Shown: in pieces, positions 6,525 through 16,293 of the stretch | Position numbering within the stretch: position 1 is the first letter of the stretch | Layout of the letters: each line of letters starts with the position of its first letter | From: Methanomassiliicoccales archaeon | GTDB lineage: Archaea > Thermoplasmatota > Thermoplasmata > RBG-16-68-12 > SOIM01 | Direction of reading: 5' to 3' | DNA: 24,000 nt | Assembly (NCBI GenBank): GCA_004377185.1 | Contig: SOIM01000020.1 | Location: 70,931-94,930 of the forward strand | The notes under the pieces: model-generated | Databases searched by the model: none | What the model saw: the letters and a program-made list of their open reading frames with translations, nothing else | Told to the model about the DNA's origin: nothing | Program-made: the position numbers and the translations under genes

Positions 6525-7643
6525 TCAATCCCTCAGCATGAAATCCTCCAGGACGTCCCTGGCTTTCTCTCTCTTCTCTTGATGGTCCTTCAAGAACCCC
6601 CAGACGAGCGATATCAAGTGCTGCTTGCACTCTCCGCACATTATGTTGCCCGAACGGCACTCTTCGTACCTGTCCTGAAGCTCCTTGTCGTCCGGAATGA
6701 ATAGATATAGATAATATTTGTAAACGGAACAGATATCAGGATCACCTCCCAATTTCTTCTGCTCCTCGATTGACACCCTGCCGCCCGTGAAGGCATTCTG
6801 CACGCTTTTCTTGATATCATCTTCGGAATCTGTCGTGAATATGCTCGACCCAGGTATGGAAGCCGACATCTTGTCAGAGCCGGTGAGGCTTGGCAACAGT
6901 TTATTGTGCAAAAGCGCTGGCTTGTAGTATCCGAGGTGCTCTGCCGCGTCCCTGGCGATTCGGAAATGGGGGTCCTGGTCTATTCCACACGGGATGAGAC
7001 AGGGTATGTTCTTTCCCTCCAAGACGCTTCCCAGGAAAGCCGGGGCCGCCTGTATGCTGGTGTAGAATATCGAACCTATGTTGTTGCTTTGGGTGAATCC
7101 GAACACCGCCCTAACAGTGGAGAAGGTGACCCTTTTGGCGACCTTGATTGCAATCGGGTAGAGATGATGGATGTACTCGGTATCCAGGAATATGTTCGTC
7201 AGGGACGGATCGAAGCCCAGGGCGATGACATCCAGCGCGTTCTCGTACGCGTATTTCTTGGTGTCCTCCAGAGTCTTGGACTCATCGAACATGAACTTCT
7301 CGTCCTCGGTGAGCTGGAAGTAGAACTTGTTCTTGAAATTGTCCTGAAGCCATTTGCAGAGAATCCAGGGAACGAGATGGCCGATGGTTGTGTGTCCCGA
7401 AGGCCCCCTGCCTGTGTACAGGTAGAAGGTGTTGCCTTTCTCATGCTGCTCCAATATCCAGTTCATGTCTCGATGGGAGTAGAATAACCCTCTTCTGAGC
7501 ATCACATGTAATGGGGATGCGTGCTTCTCGATGTGTTTAAGCAGATCATCGGTCACCTTTTGGGTACCGAATTTCTCGATCAGCTTGTCGTAGTCCACTT
7601 CCCCTCTGACTTCCCATGGGGTTACTATGAAATCCTCTGGCAT
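6525..7643 (-). CDS. trpS: Tryptophanyl-tRNA synthetase (archaeal/eukaryal type)
   Basis: GRGPSGHTTIGHLVPW (HIGH-like), KMSAS (KMSKS variant typical of TrpRS), C-terminal CGECK. Its stop is 1 nt from the pheS start, indicating an operon. Confidence 0.9.
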   Translation of the reverse strand: MPEDFIVTPWEVRGEVDYDKLIEKFGTQKVTDDLLKHIEKHASPLHVMLRRGLFYSHRDMNWILEQHEKGNTFYLYTGRGPSGHTTIGHLVPWILCKWLQDNFKNKFYFQLTEDEKFMFDESKTLEDTKKYAYENALDVIALGFDPSLTNIFLDTEYIHHLYPIAIKVAKRVTFSTVRAVFGFTQSNNIGSIFYTSIQAAPAFLGSVLEGKNIPCLIPCGIDQDPHFRIARDAAEHLGYYKPALLHNKLLPSLTGSDKMSASIPGSSIFTTDSEDDIKKSVQNAFTGGRVSIEEQKKLGGDPDICSVYKYYLYLFIPDDKELQDRYEECRSGNIMCGECKQHLISLVWGFLKDHQEKREKARDVLEDFMLRD

Positions 7644-7829
7644 TCAGTTCGCCCTCTTAATAAGCTCACCAATAATAATCCTTCGCCTTTGGTTGGCTCG
7701 GAACAAGCTGGTGATTTCGCTCGGGGATAATTGTGAAGATACTGATTTAAGCATCAGACAAGCTTGTTCTTGGATACGAGCAGGGAACAGATTTGCACCG
7801 ATGTTCGTACAAGAGAAGAAGGTGAAAGA

Positions 7830-8693
7830 ATGAGTGAATGTCCTACGTGTTCAGGTCAATTGGCCTATGTACAACAGTATGAACAGTGGTATTGTTACCA
7901 TTGCCAACAGTATTTCCAACCGGGACCACCGCCAACGCCGGAGCATCAACAACCGCAGCGAGATCCGTATCCAGAGCCACAACCAGATACTCCCACGCCA
8001 CATCCAGGGCCTCAACCACAGACGCCACCGCAACCGGCGCCCGAGTTGCAGATGCAGCCACAACAGCCCCAGATTCAGGTTCAGCAACCGGCGATGCAAC
8101 CGCAACAGCCAATATCTGCCCCCATCTGGTATCAAAACACCTACCGTATCAGGAAGAAAGTCTTGACCATCGGGAACAAGTACTGGATCGAGGACGAGAA
8201 GGGAAACATGTTGGGATTCTCCAAGCAGAAGCTCTTCAAGCTCAAGGAAGACATACGCATATACACGGACGAGACCATGAGCACCGAACTGTTCAGGATT
8301 CAGCAACAGCAAATCCTGGACCTGTGGGGATCCTTTGCGGTCATCGACTCCCAGACGAACCAGAGTCTCGGCACAATCAGAAGAGGTGCTTTGTCTTCGA
8401 AGTTCGTGAGGGATGAATGGGAGGTCTATGACGCTAACGGCCAACTTGTGGGTGGGATATACGAGTCCACGGGGCGAGGACTTGCCAGGAAGTACCTGCC
8501 CGGAGGCGGACTGATACCCGAGAAGATGTCCTTCTCATTGCAGGGTCAGCCCGTGGCCCAGATAAACCAGAAGTTCAAGATCATCGGAGACATCTGGCAT
8601 TTGCACTGCACGCATGTACCTCAGTACTTCGACCGCAGGGTGTTGCTGGCCTGTCTGTTGTTAATGGGAATGATAGAGCGCGACCGCAAGTGA
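7830..8693 (+). CDS. Zinc-ribbon + P/Q-rich linker + Tubby/LURP-one-like (DUF567-type) domain protein
   Basis: Preferred start is ATG 7830 (GGTGA upstream); the track start is 7764. N-terminal CPTC..x14..CYHC. About 65 aa of P/Q low complexity at roughly 7915-8125. The C-terminal ~190 aa begin YRIRKKVLTIGNKYWIEDEKGN and end in a hydrophobic helix, RRVLLACLLLMGMIER. Confidence 0.6.
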   Translation: MSECPTCSGQLAYVQQYEQWYCYHCQQYFQPGPPPTPEHQQPQRDPYPEPQPDTPTPHPGPQPQTPPQPAPELQMQPQQPQIQVQQPAMQPQQPISAPIWYQNTYRIRKKVLTIGNKYWIEDEKGNMLGFSKQKLFKLKEDIRIYTDETMSTELFRIQQQQILDLWGSFAVIDSQTNQSLGTIRRGALSSKFVRDEWEVYDANGQLVGGIYESTGRGLARKYLPGGGLIPEKMSFSLQGQPVAQINQKFKIIGDIWHLHCTHVPQYFDRRVLLACLLLMGMIERDRK

Positions 8694-8784
8694 GGTCCTG
8701 GAAACGGGACTTCATCTCTTCAGTTTTCTTCTCCCGAAAGCCTGAAATAGCCTGCGAGAGTTGTCATTCTGGGGTGACGAGCAC

Positions 8785-9372
8785 ATGGCAACTTTGACCT
8801 CTTTGTGGTTTCAGAATTCCTATCGAATAAGGAAGAAGGTTCTGACCATATGGAATAAGTACTGGATCGAGGACAAAAGGGGAAACAAATTGGGGTTCTC
8901 CAAGCAGAAGATGTTCAGGCTCAAGGAAGACATACGCATCTACACGGACGAGAGCATGAGCAATGAGCTGTTCAGGATCAAGCAGAAGCAAATATTGGAC
9001 TTGTGGGGCTCCTTTGCGGTCACCGACACCCAGAGCGGTCAAGTGCTCGGGACTATCAAGAGGCGTGCTCTCTCCTCGGCGTTCGTAAGAGATGAGTGGG
9101 AAGTCTATGATGCGAACAACCAGCTCGTTGGTGGATTGTATGAGTCCACAAGACGAGGATTGGCCCGAAAATACATACCTGGAGGCAAACTGATACCCGA
9201 GAAAATGACGTTCTCATTACATGGCCAACCTATTGCGAAGATCAACCAGAAGTTCAAGATAATTGGCGATATCTGGGAGCTGAAGTGCACCAACGTGCCA
9301 CAGTACTTCGACCGACGTGTGTTGCTGGCATGCATGTTGTTGATGGGAATGATCGAGCGCAGCCGCAAGTGA
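8785..9372 (+). CDS. Tubby/LURP-one-like (DUF567-type) protein, paralog of the previous gene
   Basis: Preferred start is ATG 8785 (GGTGA 8 nt upstream); the track start is TTG 8761. By-eye alignment gives roughly 80 percent amino-acid identity to the C-terminal domain of 7830..8693. It lacks the zinc ribbon and P/Q linker. Confidence 0.6.
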   Translation: MATLTSLWFQNSYRIRKKVLTIWNKYWIEDKRGNKLGFSKQKMFRLKEDIRIYTDESMSNELFRIKQKQILDLWGSFAVTDTQSGQVLGTIKRRALSSAFVRDEWEVYDANNQLVGGLYESTRRGLARKYIPGGKLIPEKMTFSLHGQPIAKINQKFKIIGDIWELKCTNVPQYFDRRVLLACMLLMGMIERSRK

Positions 9373-9450
9373 GGCGGACCAGAAATTCATTATCATTTAG
9401 CATACTCTTACAGTCAAGTTATTAATAGGTCAGCCTAGGTGTTTTCTTGA

Positions 9451-10248
9451 ATGGCTGAAACTGTAAAGCCAGGTGACTTGGACGAGGACAAGTACGAGAG
9501 GTCCAAGAGATTGGAATGGTTTGATTTGGATAAGATCCAGAGAACGAGGGTGTTGGTTGTTGGAGGGGGTGCGATTGGGAATGAGACCGTCAAGAACCTG
9601 ATACTGGCTGGTTTTAGAAAGATCACCTTGGTGGATATGGACCGTGTTGTTCGCTCCAACCTGAATAGATGTATTTTCTTTGATGAGGAGGACGCAGAAA
9701 GACGAAGGTTGAAAGTAGAGGCAATTGTTGAGAAAGCACGGAAGCTGGACAAGGAAGTGGATATCGACTACAGGACCGAGATGATTCAAAAGCTGCCGGA
9801 GGATTTCATTCCTTCCTACGACTTGGTCTTGGGTTGCCTGGACAATGTGGCTGCGAGGCTACACCTCAATGCTCACTGCTACAGGCACGGGATTCCTTAC
9901 GTCGATGCCGCCACGCAAGGGTTTGTGGGAAAAGTCCAGGTGGTGCTTCCTAAAGAGACCCCATGCTTGGAGTGTGGGATGAACAAGACCCATGTGAAGA
10001 TAATGGAGGAGAGGTTCAGTTGCACCGGTGAGGACGTGACTTTCCATGTTCCGAAGATGGCTGCTGAGATAACCACCACAAGCGTCGTTTCAGCCATACA
10101 AACGAGGGAGTCCATCAAATTGGTGCTAGGGATGGAGAAGGAGTTGATACGGAACGTTTTCTACTATGATGGGATGAGAAATGTGTCGGAGATTTTGGAA
10201 CTGGACAGGAATCCTGAATGTGCACATCATCCAGTTTCTGAGAAGTAA
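9451..10248 (+). CDS. Ubiquitin-activating E1-like adenylyltransferase (ThiF/MoeB/UBA superfamily), minimal 265 aa
   Basis: VLVVGGGAIGNE (GxGxxG), DMDRVVRSNLNRC (R-x-N-L-x-R arginine-finger motif), LDNVAAR (ATP/Mg Asp), CLEC plus C-terminal ECAHH (zinc-site-like). A Cys in FSCTGED precedes PKMAAEITTTSVVSAIQ (crossover-loop-like position). Confidence 0.85.
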   Translation: MAETVKPGDLDEDKYERSKRLEWFDLDKIQRTRVLVVGGGAIGNETVKNLILAGFRKITLVDMDRVVRSNLNRCIFFDEEDAERRRLKVEAIVEKARKLDKEVDIDYRTEMIQKLPEDFIPSYDLVLGCLDNVAARLHLNAHCYRHGIPYVDAATQGFVGKVQVVLPKETPCLECGMNKTHVKIMEERFSCTGEDVTFHVPKMAAEITTTSVVSAIQTRESIKLVLGMEKELIRNVFYYDGMRNVSEILELDRNPECAHHPVSEK

Positions 10249-10253
10249 TTCTC

Positions 10254-11081
10254 TTACAACAGGCCAGCGTTCTTCAGACCGTCCAGAACCAAGAACGTTT
10301 GAGTCTCCGGCTCTTTCTTGCCCCAACTTCCGTCTTTGTTCTGCCTTCTGATGATTGATGGGAGAGTTCTCTCCAATTGCTTCTTCGCGGCGGTTTGCTT
10401 CGCCCTGGATAGCGCATGGAACGTGTGGTAGAAGGGGAATCCTTTCCATGATCCAGTCTTTGTCTGAATATCTGCGAGATACTTGATTCCGTTCCTGACC
10501 CGCTTGGTGTTCATGCTCTTTGGATGTTCTATCAGCATGCGCAGAACGTTGATTGTGCACCATGAACCACACCAGTCTGGAGTCCAGAACTTGAGGTAAG
10601 AGTCAACTGTCTTCTGAACCTGTTTCCTTTTGTCAAGGCCGTACATGTGGAACAGGTGAACTGCATAAGGTGTCGTGTAGAATATCGTGCAGCCAGGTCC
10701 GAATTCTCCGTAATGGGTCGAGCGCATTGTGCTGGATTCCTTTCTATTGCCGGAGTGGAAGAAGCCAGGGTAGCCTCTGTATTCGTATTTCTGGGTAGAG
10801 AATAGCCAGTCCAGACCTTTCTTGACGTTCCTGTCCTTTGCATCGTAGCCCAGGAGGGCAAGGTTCCAGAGATTGTTTGCTGTGCTGACAAACAGATTGT
10901 CCCAACTGCCGTCTTTTGATTGGCGGGAAACGATTCTGCTGTAGAGTTTCTTCCTCAGGGCACCTTCAGACTTCGTTTTCTCATCAAACACAGATTGCCG
11001 GAGGTAGAAACCAATAGGTGACTTCAAATCGCCTGCATAATTCAGTGGGTCAACTCTCAGTTCTCTAGCGATGTCTTTCAT
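10254..11081 (-). CDS. QW-repeat protein (prenyltransferase / squalene-hopene cyclase-type alpha/alpha toroid repeats)
   Basis: Three QxxDGSW-type motifs: RQSKDGSWD, IQTKTGSWKG, RQNKDGSWGK. No signal peptide seen. Its stop is 6 nt from the E1 stop (convergent), and it is divergent from the Ubl gene across a 134-bp spacer. Confidence 0.6.
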   Translation of the reverse strand: MKDIARELRVDPLNYAGDLKSPIGFYLRQSVFDEKTKSEGALRKKLYSRIVSRQSKDGSWDNLFVSTANNLWNLALLGYDAKDRNVKKGLDWLFSTQKYEYRGYPGFFHSGNRKESSTMRSTHYGEFGPGCTIFYTTPYAVHLFHMYGLDKRKQVQKTVDSYLKFWTPDWCGSWCTINVLRMLIEHPKSMNTKRVRNGIKYLADIQTKTGSWKGFPFYHTFHALSRAKQTAAKKQLERTLPSIIRRQNKDGSWGKKEPETQTFLVLDGLKNAGLL

Positions 11082-12635: not shown

Positions 12636-12644
12636 GTGTCGCGA
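12612..12644. repeat. Left 33-nt direct repeat (att-like): ATGAAGAAGCTAAACCCAGATTGAGTGTCGCGA
   Basis: Identical to 16261-16293 except for one mismatch (T12639 versus C16288). Covers the last codons and stop of the JAMM gene. Confidence 0.85.
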
Positions 12645-12672
12645 TTCTCACTCCCAAAATCTTCTCTCACCC

Positions 12673-12680
12673 TTTTTTTT
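12673..12680 (+). terminator. Oligo-T tract (T8), candidate archaeal terminator for the Ubl-E2-JAMM transcript
   Basis: CCTTTTTTTTGC lies 38 nt after the JAMM stop, inside the inserted element. Confidence 0.35.
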
Positions 12681-12989
12681 GCGAATCCCTAACCAATTCT
12701 GGTGCTGGGGTGTTGGAAGTGCTTTTGATATGTGCACGCTTTGTCTCACGGATAAGAGGTGAGGATAGTCTCTTCTCGATACGTGGAGAATCTCAAATCG
12801 CTAGTTCAGTCTTAAGCAGTCCCCAATAGGTGTGAAGCTGAACGAATCTCAAAAACACCAACGGCTTCGCCTTCTCATCCGCAAGTGTAGGACGAAGGAT
12901 GGTTTCGAGAGCTACTCAGCCATAAATCTCACAAACTACTTCGAAAGTTTTATGTGATAGCAGGTCATATTAGTTATTGCGTTGGTAGT

Positions 12990-13032
12990 AACCAACAAAA
13001 AGAGGGGATGTGGCGAGTCGCCTCTTACCCTC
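12990..13032 (-). terminator. Hairpin plus T-run downstream of the DUF3800 gene
   Basis: The minus strand reads AGAGGG-n20-CCCTCT followed by TTTTGTTGG. The loop contains the palindrome GGCGAGTCGCC. Confidence 0.35.
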
Positions 13033-13037
13033 TGCTT

Positions 13038-13787
13038 CTATGGAAAAATCTTCAAGCCAGGACCCATATACTCTCCTTCATCATTTTTGTTGAACCTGTC
13101 AACAATCCTCTCAAAGAAAATATCGAAGTATTCGTCCCTCCATGTGTTTGAGGGTCTGAGTTTCCTTCGAACGCAATAAGCAACACAGTCGGCCAATTGA
13201 GAGAGGTTCCGGAAATGGGATTCAACAAAGAGAATGTCCTCAATCAGGAATTCGGTTCTCCCAGTAAACATCGTTCCTTCACGGAAGTACTCTGTCATTT
13301 TCTTCCGAACCTTGAGATCAAATGCCGGCTGCACTCTTTCAACCAACATAAGTCCAAATTCCCTTGGTCTTGATGTTCCCTCAGCTTCTCTGTTAACTCT
13401 CTTCAGGAACATATTCAAGCGTTCGTAAAGGAGGCGCAGTGCCCAACTCTCGATATCGAAATCCTTTTTTCTTATCTTGTTCTTGACTATGACGACACTG
13501 ACGATGCTCATCGTGGATTCTTCGATTAACTGGTAGATGTCTCCCAGCAATTCAAAGCACTTCGGCAGTTTCAAGCCACAGAACTCCTTGCTTGAATGGA
13601 CAATGTCCTTCGCGTGTAGTTCTACTTGGTCAGGATCCGTATCTGGGAACCACTTCTTCTTCAAGTCTAAGACCTTCTCATTGACCTCATACCACTCACC
13701 CTCATTGACAATCAGCGAAGACAGTACGAAGTTCTCTTTATCGCCGAAGTGCGGTTTCCCCGACTCATCCACATAGATTATGTACAT
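13038..13787 (-). CDS. DUF3800-family protein
   Basis: N-terminal MYIIYVDESGK (the family's YxDESG start), about 250 aa, C-terminal ADCVAYCV-type segment. Confidence 0.65.
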   Translation of the reverse strand: MYIIYVDESGKPHFGDKENFVLSSLIVNEGEWYEVNEKVLDLKKKWFPDTDPDQVELHAKDIVHSSKEFCGLKLPKCFELLGDIYQLIEESTMSIVSVVIVKNKIRKKDFDIESWALRLLYERLNMFLKRVNREAEGTSRPREFGLMLVERVQPAFDLKVRKKMTEYFREGTMFTGRTEFLIEDILFVESHFRNLSQLADCVAYCVRRKLRPSNTWRDEYFDIFFERIVDRFNKNDEGEYMGPGLKIFP

Positions 13788-13788
13788 T

Positions 13789-13893
13789 TCAGAGGAACAT
13801 CAGACAATAGATATTTCTATCCTCCCTTGCCGAGAAACTTTCTAGGTGAAGATCAATCTCCAGGACATCTTTCCGTTTCTGTTTGCTGGACAT
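13789..13893 (-). CDS. Possible 34-aa leader ORF coupled to the DUF3800 gene (MSSKQKRKDVLEIDLHLESFSAREDRNIYCLMFL)
   Basis: Its TGA stop is 1 nt from the DUF3800 ATG. There is no homology signal, and the track's longer 78-aa version starts at TTG. Confidence 0.2.
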   Translation of the reverse strand: MSSKQKRKDVLEIDLHLESFSAREDRNIYCLMFL

Positions 13894-14092
13894 CTGTGAA
13901 CCGCCCTGATTTGGAGACGGCGATCTATGTCGGGGAATCGGAGCCCTCACTGGGTAGCCACATAGAGATGCAACCCTGTGGTTCCGCGCGTGCCATCTGC
14001 TTCCTCCGATTGACCATTTTGCCAATGCTTGATAATGTCTCTGCTCTTTTCAGAGAGAGACTTATCATGTTTTCTTTCTTATTGGAGTTTAG

Positions 14093-15340
14093 TCACTGAT
14101 CTCTCTTCATTACTCTTGCTAAGGTACGTTCCATGCGTTCAAAGATCTCGTTCACCTCCTCTTGCGTGAGGGTCCCCTTTTTTCCCCATTCTTCAACAAG
14201 TCTCTTTGATATCTCTTTCCGCACACTTCTTTCTTTGGGGTCTGGAACATTCCTCTCCAATATCTCATCTGTAATGAGTTCTAACACATGGAGATTTGTG
14301 GCATACCATTGTTGATACAACACCTGGGCAACATCTGTAACATAATCTTCTCCAAATGGTCTGTCAAGGACACCTTTGGGGAGAGCCATAGCGGGATTGT
14401 CTGGCCACCTCGCCCAGACAAAGTGTGGGTTGAACTGGGTCCATAATAGCTCAAGGAACTCTCGAAACTGCTCAAGGAGATCTTGACTGACGCCGAACTT
14501 CCCAAATACCGTGAATATACTCTTCTCTCTCTTCTTCCCTAACTCTCCCTTGATGAATCTGTTAAGGAGTGAACACACCTTGATGGTCTTCTGGTCTAGA
14601 TAATTCTCTAGATTCTCTATCAGCCATTGGGCGAACTGGCTCTCACTCCTTTTGGACTCTTTAACCCTTGCGGGGTCAGTTGTAGCAAGTGCATACGACC
14701 AATAGGCTAACGGATCAGTCACCCTTCCAGCGGATTCGATGAGAACGACAAAATAGTCCCTGAGTTTCTTGGGTAGCTGTGTCTTCTCTATCTCTTCGAC
14801 CAGATAATCCTTCACCATCTCCAGGGGCATGACAAGAAACCGGTATAGATTCTCCAACTCCCTGCATGCGATCTGCCGTCGTTCCTTGACCTGATTCTCC
14901 CAGCCCTCTGGCATTTTCACGACATGGGGTATTCCATAGACAGTAAGTGATGCTGACCACAACTTGGAAAGAGCATCTGATTGTGCCATCTTCATGACTG
15001 TTTCCATGTCCTCTGCCACCACTGGCCAACAGTGGTCTATATCAGTCCTCCTGAGTGATTCGGTCTGCCCATCCCGTAGTCTTTCTCCCCGTTGCTCCTT
15101 CGTAACATAGTATATGCACTCTTTCCCATTTACCTTCCTTCTCTGGACCGCGCCTATATCACACAGTTTGCTAAGATACTTGTACAGAGCCTTGGCCTTC
15201 TCTTTGTTGTAACCAAATTCTTTCCTTATCTGACGTTGTGTGATTCCCTCCCATCTTTCCTCAATGATTCCAAGGATGCGGTCATACGGCTCTCTCTCCT
15301 TGATGTCCTCTATGTCTTTTATATAACTACCTCGCGACAT
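14093..15340 (-). CDS. 415-aa protein with N-terminal winged-helix domain, remainder alpha-helical, function unknown
   Basis: ITQRQIRKEFGYNKEKAKALYKYLSKLCDIGAVQRRKVNGKECIYYV looks wHTH. No Walker A, no recombinase R..HxxR..Y pattern and no nuclease motif could be identified. Confidence 0.5.
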   Translation of the reverse strand: MSRGSYIKDIEDIKEREPYDRILGIIEERWEGITQRQIRKEFGYNKEKAKALYKYLSKLCDIGAVQRRKVNGKECIYYVTKEQRGERLRDGQTESLRRTDIDHCWPVVAEDMETVMKMAQSDALSKLWSASLTVYGIPHVVKMPEGWENQVKERRQIACRELENLYRFLVMPLEMVKDYLVEEIEKTQLPKKLRDYFVVLIESAGRVTDPLAYWSYALATTDPARVKESKRSESQFAQWLIENLENYLDQKTIKVCSLLNRFIKGELGKKREKSIFTVFGKFGVSQDLLEQFREFLELLWTQFNPHFVWARWPDNPAMALPKGVLDRPFGEDYVTDVAQVLYQQWYATNLHVLELITDEILERNVPDPKERSVRKEISKRLVEEWGKKGTLTQEEVNEIFERMERTLARVMKRDQ

Positions 15341-15404
15341 ATTTGACGCCTCTTTTCCGCTTAGGGGACTTGAATGTCCATTTCGGGTATCCTATATCTC
15401 CCTA

Positions 15405-15412
15405 TTTATATA
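15405..15412 (+). promoter_or_regulatory. TATA box (TTTATATA) for the AbrB-like gene, probably leaderless
   Basis: Centre is about 28 nt upstream of ATG 15437. It sits in the divergent spacer shared with the 415-aa gene. Confidence 0.45.
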
Positions 15413-15436
15413 AGGGGTTGTATTTTCTTTTATAGT

Positions 15437-15628
15437 ATGTTGGAAGGTTGTGTTCCGATTGGAAAGGGAAGAATTCAGTCAATTGGTGGGTCGCTATGCT
15501 CACTTGTGCCAGCCGTTTATCGGAAGTTTGTCAGGCTGGAGAAGGGCGATACCGTGGATTTGTTCTTTGAGGGTAATAACAAATTGATAATCAAGCCAGC
15601 GAAAGATGATGGGGAGGGAGCAGACTGA
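15437..15628 (+). CDS. AbrB/MazE/SpoVT-type (swapped-hairpin) DNA-binding protein
   Basis: SIGGSLCSLVPAVYRKFVRLEKGDTVDLFFEGNNKLIIKP matches the SpoVT-AbrB pattern. The internal ATG 15437 is preferred over track start 15374 because of the TATA position. Confidence 0.6.
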   Translation: MLEGCVPIGKGRIQSIGGSLCSLVPAVYRKFVRLEKGDTVDLFFEGNNKLIIKPAKDDGEGAD

Positions 15629-15669
15629 AAAAGATAGCCTGCATAAGCGTCTTCCTCCTGCTCATAACG

Positions 15670-15930
15670 ATGATCCTTCTCCCCCGCTATTTTTTCGGAC
15701 CCAAAGTAGTCGCACAAAAGAAGGAGACAACTTATCCCGGTTCTATTTCAGTGACATACGGAACCGCAACTGGCATCCTTCATTATGTAGTAGGTCAGGA
15801 TGGAGTCAGTTATCAGGTCGCGGAGGAAGATACGAACTCTGGGAGTATCCTCTGGAATGACACAATAAACACACAGATCTTTGAGGAATGCTTGAGCAGG
15901 GCAAAGCTGGCAACGGAGGTTGCAACTTGA
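15670..15930 (+). CDS. Small hypothetical protein, possibly with an N-terminal hydrophobic anchor if it starts upstream
   Basis: The frame is open from 15610 and encodes LKKIACISVFLLLITMILLPRYFF before the track's ATG, but there is no canonical start in that stretch. No homology recognised. Confidence 0.3.
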   Translation: MILLPRYFFGPKVVAQKKETTYPGSISVTYGTATGILHYVVGQDGVSYQVAEEDTNSGSILWNDTINTQIFEECLSRAKLATEVAT

Positions 15931-16163
15931 ACGGTGTCTTTGGAAGTGAGGGGATTCCCCCACCGTCTAGCACTGTCTTTGGCCGAAAGCTTCACCCTAT
16001 TCATGCGCTATTATTTGCTGCATTCGTTCTGATTCTGTTGACTGTCCTCTTTGTCTTCATCCTGATAGTCACAGGTGAAATGAGCCAAGTTGTATTGACT
16101 CTTATAACGGATGTCGTTGCGCTTGTTATTGGTGCTCTGTTCGGATCGAAACTTGTCGAGTAA
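15888..16163 (+). CDS. Small two-TM membrane protein (start uncertain)
   Basis: Hydrophobic segments ALLFAAFVLILLTVLFVFILIV and VVLTLITDVVALVIGALFG. Confidence 0.35.
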   Translation: MLEQGKAGNGGCNLNGVFGSEGIPPPSSTVFGRKLHPIHALLFAAFVLILLTVLFVFILIVTGEMSQVVLTLITDVVALVIGALFGSKLVE

Positions 16164-16260
16164 TCGGCCCTGTAGCACGATTCGCATGGATCCAATATTA
16201 GAGATTGCAGATGGAAACCTTCTCCCGATGCCATAGGAGTGGACAACTTCAAGGAAAAGA

Positions 16261-16293
16261 ATGAAGAAGCTAAACCCAGATTGAGTGCCGCGA
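16261..16293. repeat. Right 33-nt direct repeat (att-like)
   Basis: ATGAAGAAGCTAAACCCAGATTGAGTGCCGCGA. On the minus strand it covers the last codons (..SRHSIWV) and stop of the SIS/PHI gene. Confidence 0.85.

Follow-up and report, generated by a model that had tools for sequence, protein, structure and literature searches.

Tandem LURP-one-related paralogs next to an archaeal ubiquitin-like gene cluster are probably free-standing family members and not parts of the cascade

RESULTS

Two LOR genes between TrpRS and E1

We analysed a window of 24,000 nt (the whole stretch of DNA under study; G000:C30:70931-94930) from a 2.64-Mb Thermoplasmatota metagenome-assembled genome, in which two same-strand genes, called here LOR-A and LOR-B, lie directly upstream of a gene cluster for a ubiquitin-like cascade. 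The pair is flanked by a divergent gene for tryptophanyl-tRNA synthetase (TrpRS; 6525-7643, minus strand) and by a gene for a ThiF-type E1 (9451-10248). The cascade genes beside the pair, identified with Pfam, encode E1, a ubiquitin-like protein (Ubl) whose C-terminus is GG-His, E2 and a JAMM protein; a profile search found no RING E3 encoded in the window's cluster. A genome search gave two LOR copies and no third. We consider it quite probable that LOR-A and LOR-B are free-standing paralogs of the known LURP-one-related family (LOR, DUF567; COG4894, 'YxjI-like') and not components of the cascade. The pair is made up as follows.

7830..8693, plus strand: LOR-A, full-length member with zinc ribbon, P/Q linker and LOR/Tubby-fold domain (open reading frame with ATG start, 287 aa plus stop)
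7830..7919, plus strand: predicted C4 zinc ribbon of LOR-A, aa 1-30, with C4, C7, C22 and C25 (alignment consensus, structure model, weak Pfam hits among homologs)
7920..8120, plus strand: low-complexity P/Q-rich linker of LOR-A, aa 31-97, predicted to be disordered (composition; predicted local distance difference test score, pLDDT)
8121..8690, plus strand: LOR/DUF567 Tubby-fold domain of LOR-A, aa 98-287, with the C-terminal central helix at aa 269-281 (Pfam, AlphaFold2 (AF2) model, Foldseek)
8694..8784, plus strand: spacer of 91 nt between LOR-A and LOR-B (direct reading)
8785..9372, plus strand: LOR-B, domain-only paralog without ribbon or linker (open reading frame with ATG start, 195 aa plus stop)

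BLASTP aligned LOR-A with LOR-B without gaps at 154 identities in 191 residues (81%; E-value 7e-123), a similarity that is not a chance match. An earlier prediction made from the letters of the window (below, the original prediction) had described a shared domain of ~190 aa with ~80 percent identity, and its account of the pair agrees with our measurements in each detail: the start YRIRKKVLTI.NKYWIED and the end RRVLLAC(L/M)LLMGMIER were found in both copies; the CPTC..CYHC of the first copy reads as C4-x2-C7-x14-C22-x2-C25; the ~65 residues said to be nearly all P, Q, T and E make a linker of 67 residues with 24 P and 18 Q (P+Q+T+E = 73%); and the pair stops 78 nt short of E1, the LOR-B stop codon ending at 9372 and the E1 ATG lying at 9451. 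The barrel domains are strongly basic, with isoelectric points (pI) of 9.4 for LOR-A and 10.0 for LOR-B. Direct reading of the spacer at 8694-8784 shows a pyrimidine/T-rich stretch behind the LOR-A stop and, 7 nt ahead of the LOR-B ATG, the motif GGGGTGA, a putative Shine-Dalgarno-like sequence.

Family and fold assignment

The Pfam LOR profile (LURP-one-related, DUF567, PF04525), whose gathering cut-off is 24.5 bits, matches LOR-B at 25.4 bits (E-value 1.2e-5) and 55 of 66 aligned homologs (best E-value 9.4e-7). A search of 5.8 billion proteins yielded 756 relatives, and the best 120 of these are 62-100% identical to LOR-B, every one carrying the precomputed label PF04525; where their source names bear a taxon, they point to Thermoplasmata-type archaea, and the name given by the Joint Genome Institute (JGI) is 'YxjI'. 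The wider family is large, since 836 cluster representatives (at 50% identity) were found at E-values up to 0.001. LOR-A and LOR-B thus add members to a known, uncharacterised family.

The AF2 model of LOR-A (pLDDT 78) has the ribbon, a disordered linker, 12 strands and a C-terminal helix at residues 269-281; that of LOR-B (pLDDT 81.6; predicted template modelling score, pTM, 0.82) has the same 12-strand barrel with the helix at 177-189. In both predictions the barrel core reaches a pLDDT of about 90. When the models were compared with the PDB by Foldseek, the top match of each was the Arabidopsis protein At5g01750 (1zxu), with an E-value of 4.8e-5 and template modelling (TM) scores of 0.56/0.65 for LOR-B and an E-value of 1.2e-4 for LOR-A (probability 1.00 in both cases). 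Human TULP1 (3c5n, 2fim) followed with TM scores of 0.44-0.51 and probability 1.00, and beyond 1zxu and TULP1 the comparison gave no convincing match. Both proteins would accordingly adopt a 12-stranded beta-barrel around a C-terminal hydrophobic helix and belong to a branch of the Tubby-like superfamily.

Sequence searches of the PDB were less informative: LOR-B by itself gave one match, 1zxu at an E-value of 1.4, and the family profile gave chance or generic matches alone (uL3 and the eS31 ribbon). These are not significant, and the fold evidence therefore rests on Pfam together with structure prediction. The Tub and Scramblase profiles had no match at E-values up to 1 in LOR-A, LOR-B or the 66 homologs, and Tubby_C_like (PF23728) weakly matched 4 of the 66 (0.034). 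Judged from the models, the relation to Tubby appears to be one of superfamily (fold) level only. In this form the Tubby/LURP-one-like assignment of the original prediction holds, by way of the Pfam LOR match and the fold matches to 1zxu and TULP1; of the three profiles that it named for comparison, LOR is positive and Scramblase and Tub are negative, and the predicted structures that it proposed to compare share the barrel and helix described above.

DUF567 proteins, scramblases and Tubby proteins have been linked as one superfamily, and a buried helix has been described for it (Bateman et al., PMC2639001). Because the fold seen with AF2 and Foldseek fits that description, the C-terminal hydrophobic helix most likely forms the core of the barrel and does not anchor the protein in a membrane. 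LOR-A and LOR-B were unmatched in NCBIfam, PADLOC and PHROGs, and their sequences give no hint of a defence-system or viral origin.

LOR genes and the ubiquitin-like cascade

The position of the pair invites a different explanation, in which LOR-A and LOR-B are functional partners of E1, Ubl, E2 and JAMM, acting as substrates, as sensors or as adaptors in place of the missing E3. The original prediction had named them as possible partners or substrates. The pair lies on the same strand as E1, 78 nt away from it; the cluster is without an encoded RING E3; and the order TrpRS, LOR, E1 recurs in all LOR-holding genomes of the window's own family, f1 (G000, G074, G075, G076, G078 and the contig L033; the contig L036 ends just past LOR). 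We looked for such a link in three surveys of genomes and loci.

In a survey of 79 genomes of the order, LOR was present in 23 and E2 in 13, and the two were within about 3 kb of each other in f1 only (the same five genomes). Across the class (301 genomes, each at least 80% complete), 39 genomes have both genes, 33 have LOR only, 78 have E2 only and 151 have neither. The two are adjacent in four of the 39 genomes holding both, all from f1, and unlinked in the other 35; in G111, assembled as one contig, 278 kb separate them. The raw odds ratio for co-occurrence is 2.3; without the two large families in which both genes are missing, it drops to about 1.05. Families f7, f3 and f4 have LOR without E2, and f11 has E2 without LOR. 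Across families, the presence of LOR is independent of that of E2.

The same picture emerged at the species level, where we scored the cascade within 4 kb of LOR in the best 80 of 318 LOR loci (73 of the 80 include at least 1.5 kb downstream of LOR). An intact cascade was near LOR at four loci and a decayed remnant at one more; the remaining 75 had none. The sole recurrent neighbour of LOR is the divergently transcribed gene for the alpha subunit of phenylalanyl-tRNA synthetase (PheRS-alpha), found alone or with TrpRS at 12 of the 80 loci, and seven of these 12 belong to a separate clade with neither TrpRS nor E1 beside LOR. Clustering of neighbours, over 16 and then 80 loci, gave LOR no conserved operon partner beyond f1.

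Clusters in other families work without an adjoining LOR gene, as those of f5 and f10 illustrate. The f5 block (L021-L024) consists of PheRS-alpha, TrpRS, E1, Ubl, E2, JAMM, SIS and apurinic/apyrimidinic (AP) endonuclease genes, with neither LOR nor a QW-repeat gene; E1 follows TrpRS directly, and LOR, where present, is elsewhere (L012, L025, L028). Within f1 the block from PheRS to AP endonuclease is syntenic, so conserved gene order is to be expected there without any functional link. In the simplest reading, LOR and the cascade would each have settled beside the same tRNA-synthetase genes and so come to stand side by side in the window's family, since PheRS-alpha is the commonest neighbour of LOR and the cluster adjoins TrpRS in both f1 and f5. 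The adjacency of LOR and E1 is a gene-order feature of one family and not a conserved partnership. It is confined to f1 and one decayed locus (five of 80 loci; four of 39 genomes), which speaks against the proposed role as partners or substrates; the survey of co-occurrence with E1/E2 loci that the original prediction suggested returned an association with the cascade that is not conserved and looks random across genomes.

The original prediction had also cited the F-boxes of plant Tubby-like proteins, which link those proteins to ubiquitin ligases. The F-box profile matched neither LOR-A nor LOR-B nor any homolog, the profiles of RING, U-box and ubiquitin-binding zinc fingers likewise found no match in LOR proteins, and F-boxes belong to the plant Tub family and not to LOR proteins, so the analogy does not carry over.

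The decayed locus is in G012, of family f5 (L013, G012:C39, 8736-10626). E1 and E2 are gone, and the N-terminal part of JAMM is lost. Ubl is intact, with a C-terminus of exactly GG and a promoter region that matches the one behind E1 in the undamaged clusters of f5; the gene between TrpRS and Ubl is a LOR gene with a ribbon.

Some apparent leads were set aside. The sequence at the contig ends of G008 excluded a hidden adjacency of LOR and the cascade across a contig break, and a truncation of PheRS-alpha in G078 was rejected as a run of N in the scaffold. ThiF-like and JAB-like genes 3-8 kb from LOR in f2 and f7 were judged to be incidental. At two f7 loci Pfam identified, near LOR, a ThiS-ThiF-rhodanese fusion, a cysteine desulfurase, NifU and SufBD, i.e. 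a neighbourhood of sulfur-carrier and Fe-S assembly genes. In L026 (f7; 88-1548 and 7026-9560) the ThiS-ThiF-rhodanese triple fusion stands beside a small JAB protease, and a SufB/D gene carries a LAGLIDADG domain, probably an intein; both regions are 6-8 kb from LOR.

Promoter and transcription signals of E1

Two features lie in the interval between LOR-B and E1.

9389..9418, plus strand: candidate regulator-binding element of about 30 nt (conservation; putative function)
9419..9427, plus strand: E1 TATA-like box TTATTAATA, ending 23 nt ahead of the E1 ATG at 9451

In the LOR-to-E1 spacers of f1 a TATA-like box ends 23 nt ahead of the E1 ATG in every genome, and in f5, where E1 has no LOR upstream, an A/T box is found at a like distance (21-22 nt). 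Since the box keeps its spacing to the ATG regardless of an upstream LOR gene, E1 has its own promoter. The original prediction had pointed to a TATA box of E1 and cautioned that co-transcription was not assured, and conservation of the box in both kinds of relatives is in line with this view. The geometry of TATA box and ATG suggests that the E1 mRNA is leaderless or nearly so. The ~30-nt element directly upstream of the box is kept in every LOR-to-E1 spacer of f1, across two genera (the window, L007, L008, L009, L010 and L033); it was not found upstream of E1 in f5, and it occurs once in a search of the window and the whole genome. Its conservation makes the element a candidate binding site for an E1 regulator.

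Several observations pull the other way from our reading of the pair as free-standing family members. LOR-A alone scores 19.9 bits with the Pfam LOR profile, under the cut-off (it is 81% identical to LOR-B), and the family profile found no significant sequence match to 1zxu. The adjacency of LOR and E1 is stable over two genera of f1 and the metagenomic contigs L033 and L036, and the G012 locus kept LOR beside Ubl after the loss of E1 and E2. No oligo-T terminator or tract separates LOR-B from E1, and most f1 members have a purine-rich Shine-Dalgarno-like motif ahead of E1 (in G078 it is interrupted, and in the other genus it lies far off); read-through co-transcription from LOR-B into E1 is possible on these sequence features. 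The ligand and membrane function considered below is proposed from analogy and charge.

Set against the surveys and the conserved TATA box of E1, which itself counts against partnership, these points leave it improbable that LOR-A and LOR-B are partners of the cascade in the sense given above. A narrower version would have the ribbon-bearing LOR and its ribbon-less paralog recruited, in f1 specifically, to a cascade lacking E3, as a substrate-recruiting or membrane-localising adaptor or as the main substrate; we give it slightly less credence still. If true, it would be a prokaryotic counterpart of the Tubby-type ubiquitin-ligase adaptors, independently evolved. Our preferred reading, that the LOR genes are neighbours of the cascade, is of use as a negative result: LOR is not to be counted as a cluster component, or as an E3 or adaptor candidate, by position alone.

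The zinc ribbon and linker are the usual form of the family

Alignment of the 66 homologs gave 37 invariant columns and a ribbon consensus of CPxC...QYxQWYCxxC. The AF2 model of the ribbon is confident (pLDDT about 90-95), with three short strands, and generic zinc-ribbon Pfam profiles match among the homologs, weakly. The linker is modelled at a pLDDT of 42-67 without secondary structure. A ribbon can be recognised in 34 of the homologs, and their linkers, measured by pattern, span 16-71 residues (median 32); the longest are those of LOR-A (67 by direct reading) and its same-genus ortholog. The ribbon stands at the start of the orthologs in all 18 genomic loci inspected as well as in the aligned homologs. 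By these comparisons a ribbon, a P/Q/A-rich linker and a barrel together are the normal form of the LOR family in Thermoplasmatota.

The original prediction had treated the ribbon as a special fusion of one copy. The alignment and the 18 loci reverse this: the ribbon is the family norm, and the ribbon-less copy is the derived one. It had also called the P/Q low complexity unusual, which is right for the length (67 residues against the median of 32) and wrong for the composition, P/Q/A-rich linkers being usual in the family. Two short homologs, P0006 and P0008, were considered as orthologs of LOR-B and rejected as ribbon-bearing genes with mis-called starts. About one in four of the sampled genomes of the Thermoplasmata class has a zinc-ribbon-LOR gene, and the family deserves biochemistry.

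In several LOR genes of family f7 (L015, L016 and L026) the ribbon has a degenerate second knuckle, with a non-Cys residue after WWC. Three Cys remain, so that this ribbon, on its sequence, may no longer bind zinc.

Origin and maintenance of LOR-B

The reading frame of LOR-B is open for 13 codons upstream of its ATG and no more (open frame 208 aa), and LOR-B is therefore truly without the ribbon module. The tree of barrel domains joins LOR-A to the one LOR gene of G078, a genome of the same genus (81% identity over the full length), with LOR-B as sister to that pair (support 87/87). Synonymous divergence (dS) is 1.32 between LOR-A and LOR-B versus 0.95 between LOR-A and the G078 gene, and the ratio of nonsynonymous to synonymous divergence (dN/dS) is about 0.1 in both comparisons (0.095 for LOR-A/LOR-B). 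The tree and these values indicate that the duplication is old and that both copies are constrained. The near-identical assembly L006 has the same tandem pair, its LOR-B copy being 98.5% identical. LOR-B is thus a tandem duplicate of long standing, which lost ribbon and tether and was kept under purifying selection.

One could suppose that LOR-B is an artefact of annotation, or a duplicate that is in decay or without function, and that only LOR-A matters, considering that LOR-B lacks the N-terminal module of essentially all orthologs, that G078 has one LOR copy, and that dN/dS between LOR-B and its L006 counterpart is 0.46, a value derived from very few substitutions. We find this very hard to credit. 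The 195-codon frame is intact, with all family-invariant residues aligned; a dN/dS of 0.095 at a dS of 1.3 relative to LOR-A means that LOR-B has long been under constraint; LOR-B has a Shine-Dalgarno-like motif of its own; and its AF2 model is confident (pTM 0.82). As a maintained duplicate LOR-B forms with LOR-A a natural pair, one untethered and one tethered, and hence a ready comparison for the role of the ribbon.

The contig L033 (GCA_046759025.1) comes from a close relative, whose TrpRS, PheRS-alpha and E1 are 97%, 95% and 88% identical to those of the window. At 2230-2934, the same site between TrpRS and E1 as 7830-9372 in the window, it has a LOR gene of a different type, with a short linker and about 72% identity, which clusters with the LOR genes of the other genus. 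The difference points to a replaced allele, or to faster change of LOR, at the TrpRS/E1 site.

Proposed function

We tentatively favour a peripheral module for anionic ligands, a proposal that we rate as plausible and somewhat short of likely. The basic and highly conserved barrel would bind an anionic ligand at or near the membrane, e.g. a lipid head group; the tethered zinc ribbon would give a second contact, to protein or nucleic acid; and LOR-B, without the ribbon, could serve as an untethered or competing form. We favour such a module because of the basic pI, the synthetase-like conservation, the analogy with Tubby/TULP proteins and scramblases, and the membership of yxjI in the sigma-W regulon. 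Identity to the proteins of G015 is about 72% for LOR, 69% for TrpRS, 58% for E1 and 50% for JAMM; LOR is thus about as well conserved as the tRNA synthetases next to it, with 55-80% identity across the class. Tubby/TULP proteins bind phosphoinositides and scramblases act at membranes (PMC2639001), and Bacillus subtilis yxjI is one of the core genes of the sigma-W envelope-stress regulon (PMC3498285).

The main alternative is that LOR proteins bind nucleic acid or act in transcription via the zinc ribbon and the basic barrel, whose pI of 9.4 to 10.0 would suit this role. Profiles of TFIIB, RPB9 and Nudix-type zinc ribbons match some homologs and the eS31 ribbon matches that of LOR (E-value 0.12), but all the zinc-ribbon matches are weak and generic, and no helix-turn-helix or other DNA-binding profile matched. 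tRNA synthetase genes are the commonest neighbours of LOR; they are, however, divergently transcribed and found at only 12 of 80 loci. Members of the Tubby/scramblase superfamily have been hypothesised to be 'membrane-tethered transcription factors' (PMC2639001), though it is debated whether Tubby and scramblases bind DNA. On balance we regard a nucleic acid role as unlikely; the ligand-binding module at the membrane remains the function we prefer.

Comparison with known systems

The closest characterised structure is At5g01750 (LURP-one-related, PF04525, 1zxu), which shares the Pfam family with LOR-B, is its best structural match and has a 12-strand barrel with a central helix. It is only about 14-15% identical to archaeal LOR, and the archaeal profile misses it by sequence. 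Plant LOR proteins have neither the zinc ribbon nor the P/Q tether found in archaeal LOR-A. Plant members are tied to pathogen defence and stress, which is uninformative for archaea.

B. subtilis YxjI (COG4894, DUF567) is a small stand-alone LOR protein, whose name JGI gives to proteins of the window's kind. The yxjI gene is transcribed with yxjJ in the sigma-W regulon (PMC3498285), a context that the LOR genes of the window do not have.

The C-terminal domain of Tubby/TULP proteins (3c5n, 2fim) has the same superfamily fold at TM scores of 0.44-0.51, and both it and LOR have a basic surface (for the window's LOR, as judged by pI). TULP1 binds inositol phosphates. The Tubby domain has longer loops than LOR, and the Pfam Tub profile fails on LOR. 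Plant Tubby-like proteins begin with an F-box; the N-terminus of LOR-A has a C4 zinc ribbon and a disordered linker instead.

Phospholipid scramblases (PLSCR1-5, PF03803) are kin of DUF567 (PMC2639001), and their layout runs parallel to that of LOR-A: a proline-rich N-terminus, a Tubby-like barrel and a terminal hydrophobic helix. By direct reading, the Cys-cluster palmitoylation motif and the Ca-binding loop of scramblases are absent from LOR, in which the segment before the helix is short (VPQYFDRR). The zinc ribbon of LOR-A is, in turn, not a scramblase feature.

The window's E1, Ubl, E2 and JAMM are of a like kind to the Caldiarchaeum-type ubiquitin operon (Ub, E1, E2, small RING, Rpn11). 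That operon reportedly has no LOR or Tubby-like gene. The LOR genes of the window are lineage-specific neighbours, unlike the conserved members of the Caldiarchaeum-type operon.

Other features of the window's cluster

A QW-repeat (squalene-cyclase-like) gene lies between E1 and Ubl on the minus strand (10254-11081). Like LOR at this site it is confined to the window's family; the clusters of f5 and f10 (L021-L024, L030) consist of E1, Ubl, E2 and JAMM without it.

Between the JAMM and SIS-domain genes the window has ~3.6 kb of DNA (12636-16269) with a lower GC content (0.46 vs about 0.51). Neither the near-identical assembly L006 nor L003 has this segment, and in both of them the JAMM and SIS genes overlap end to end; it looks like an inserted element.

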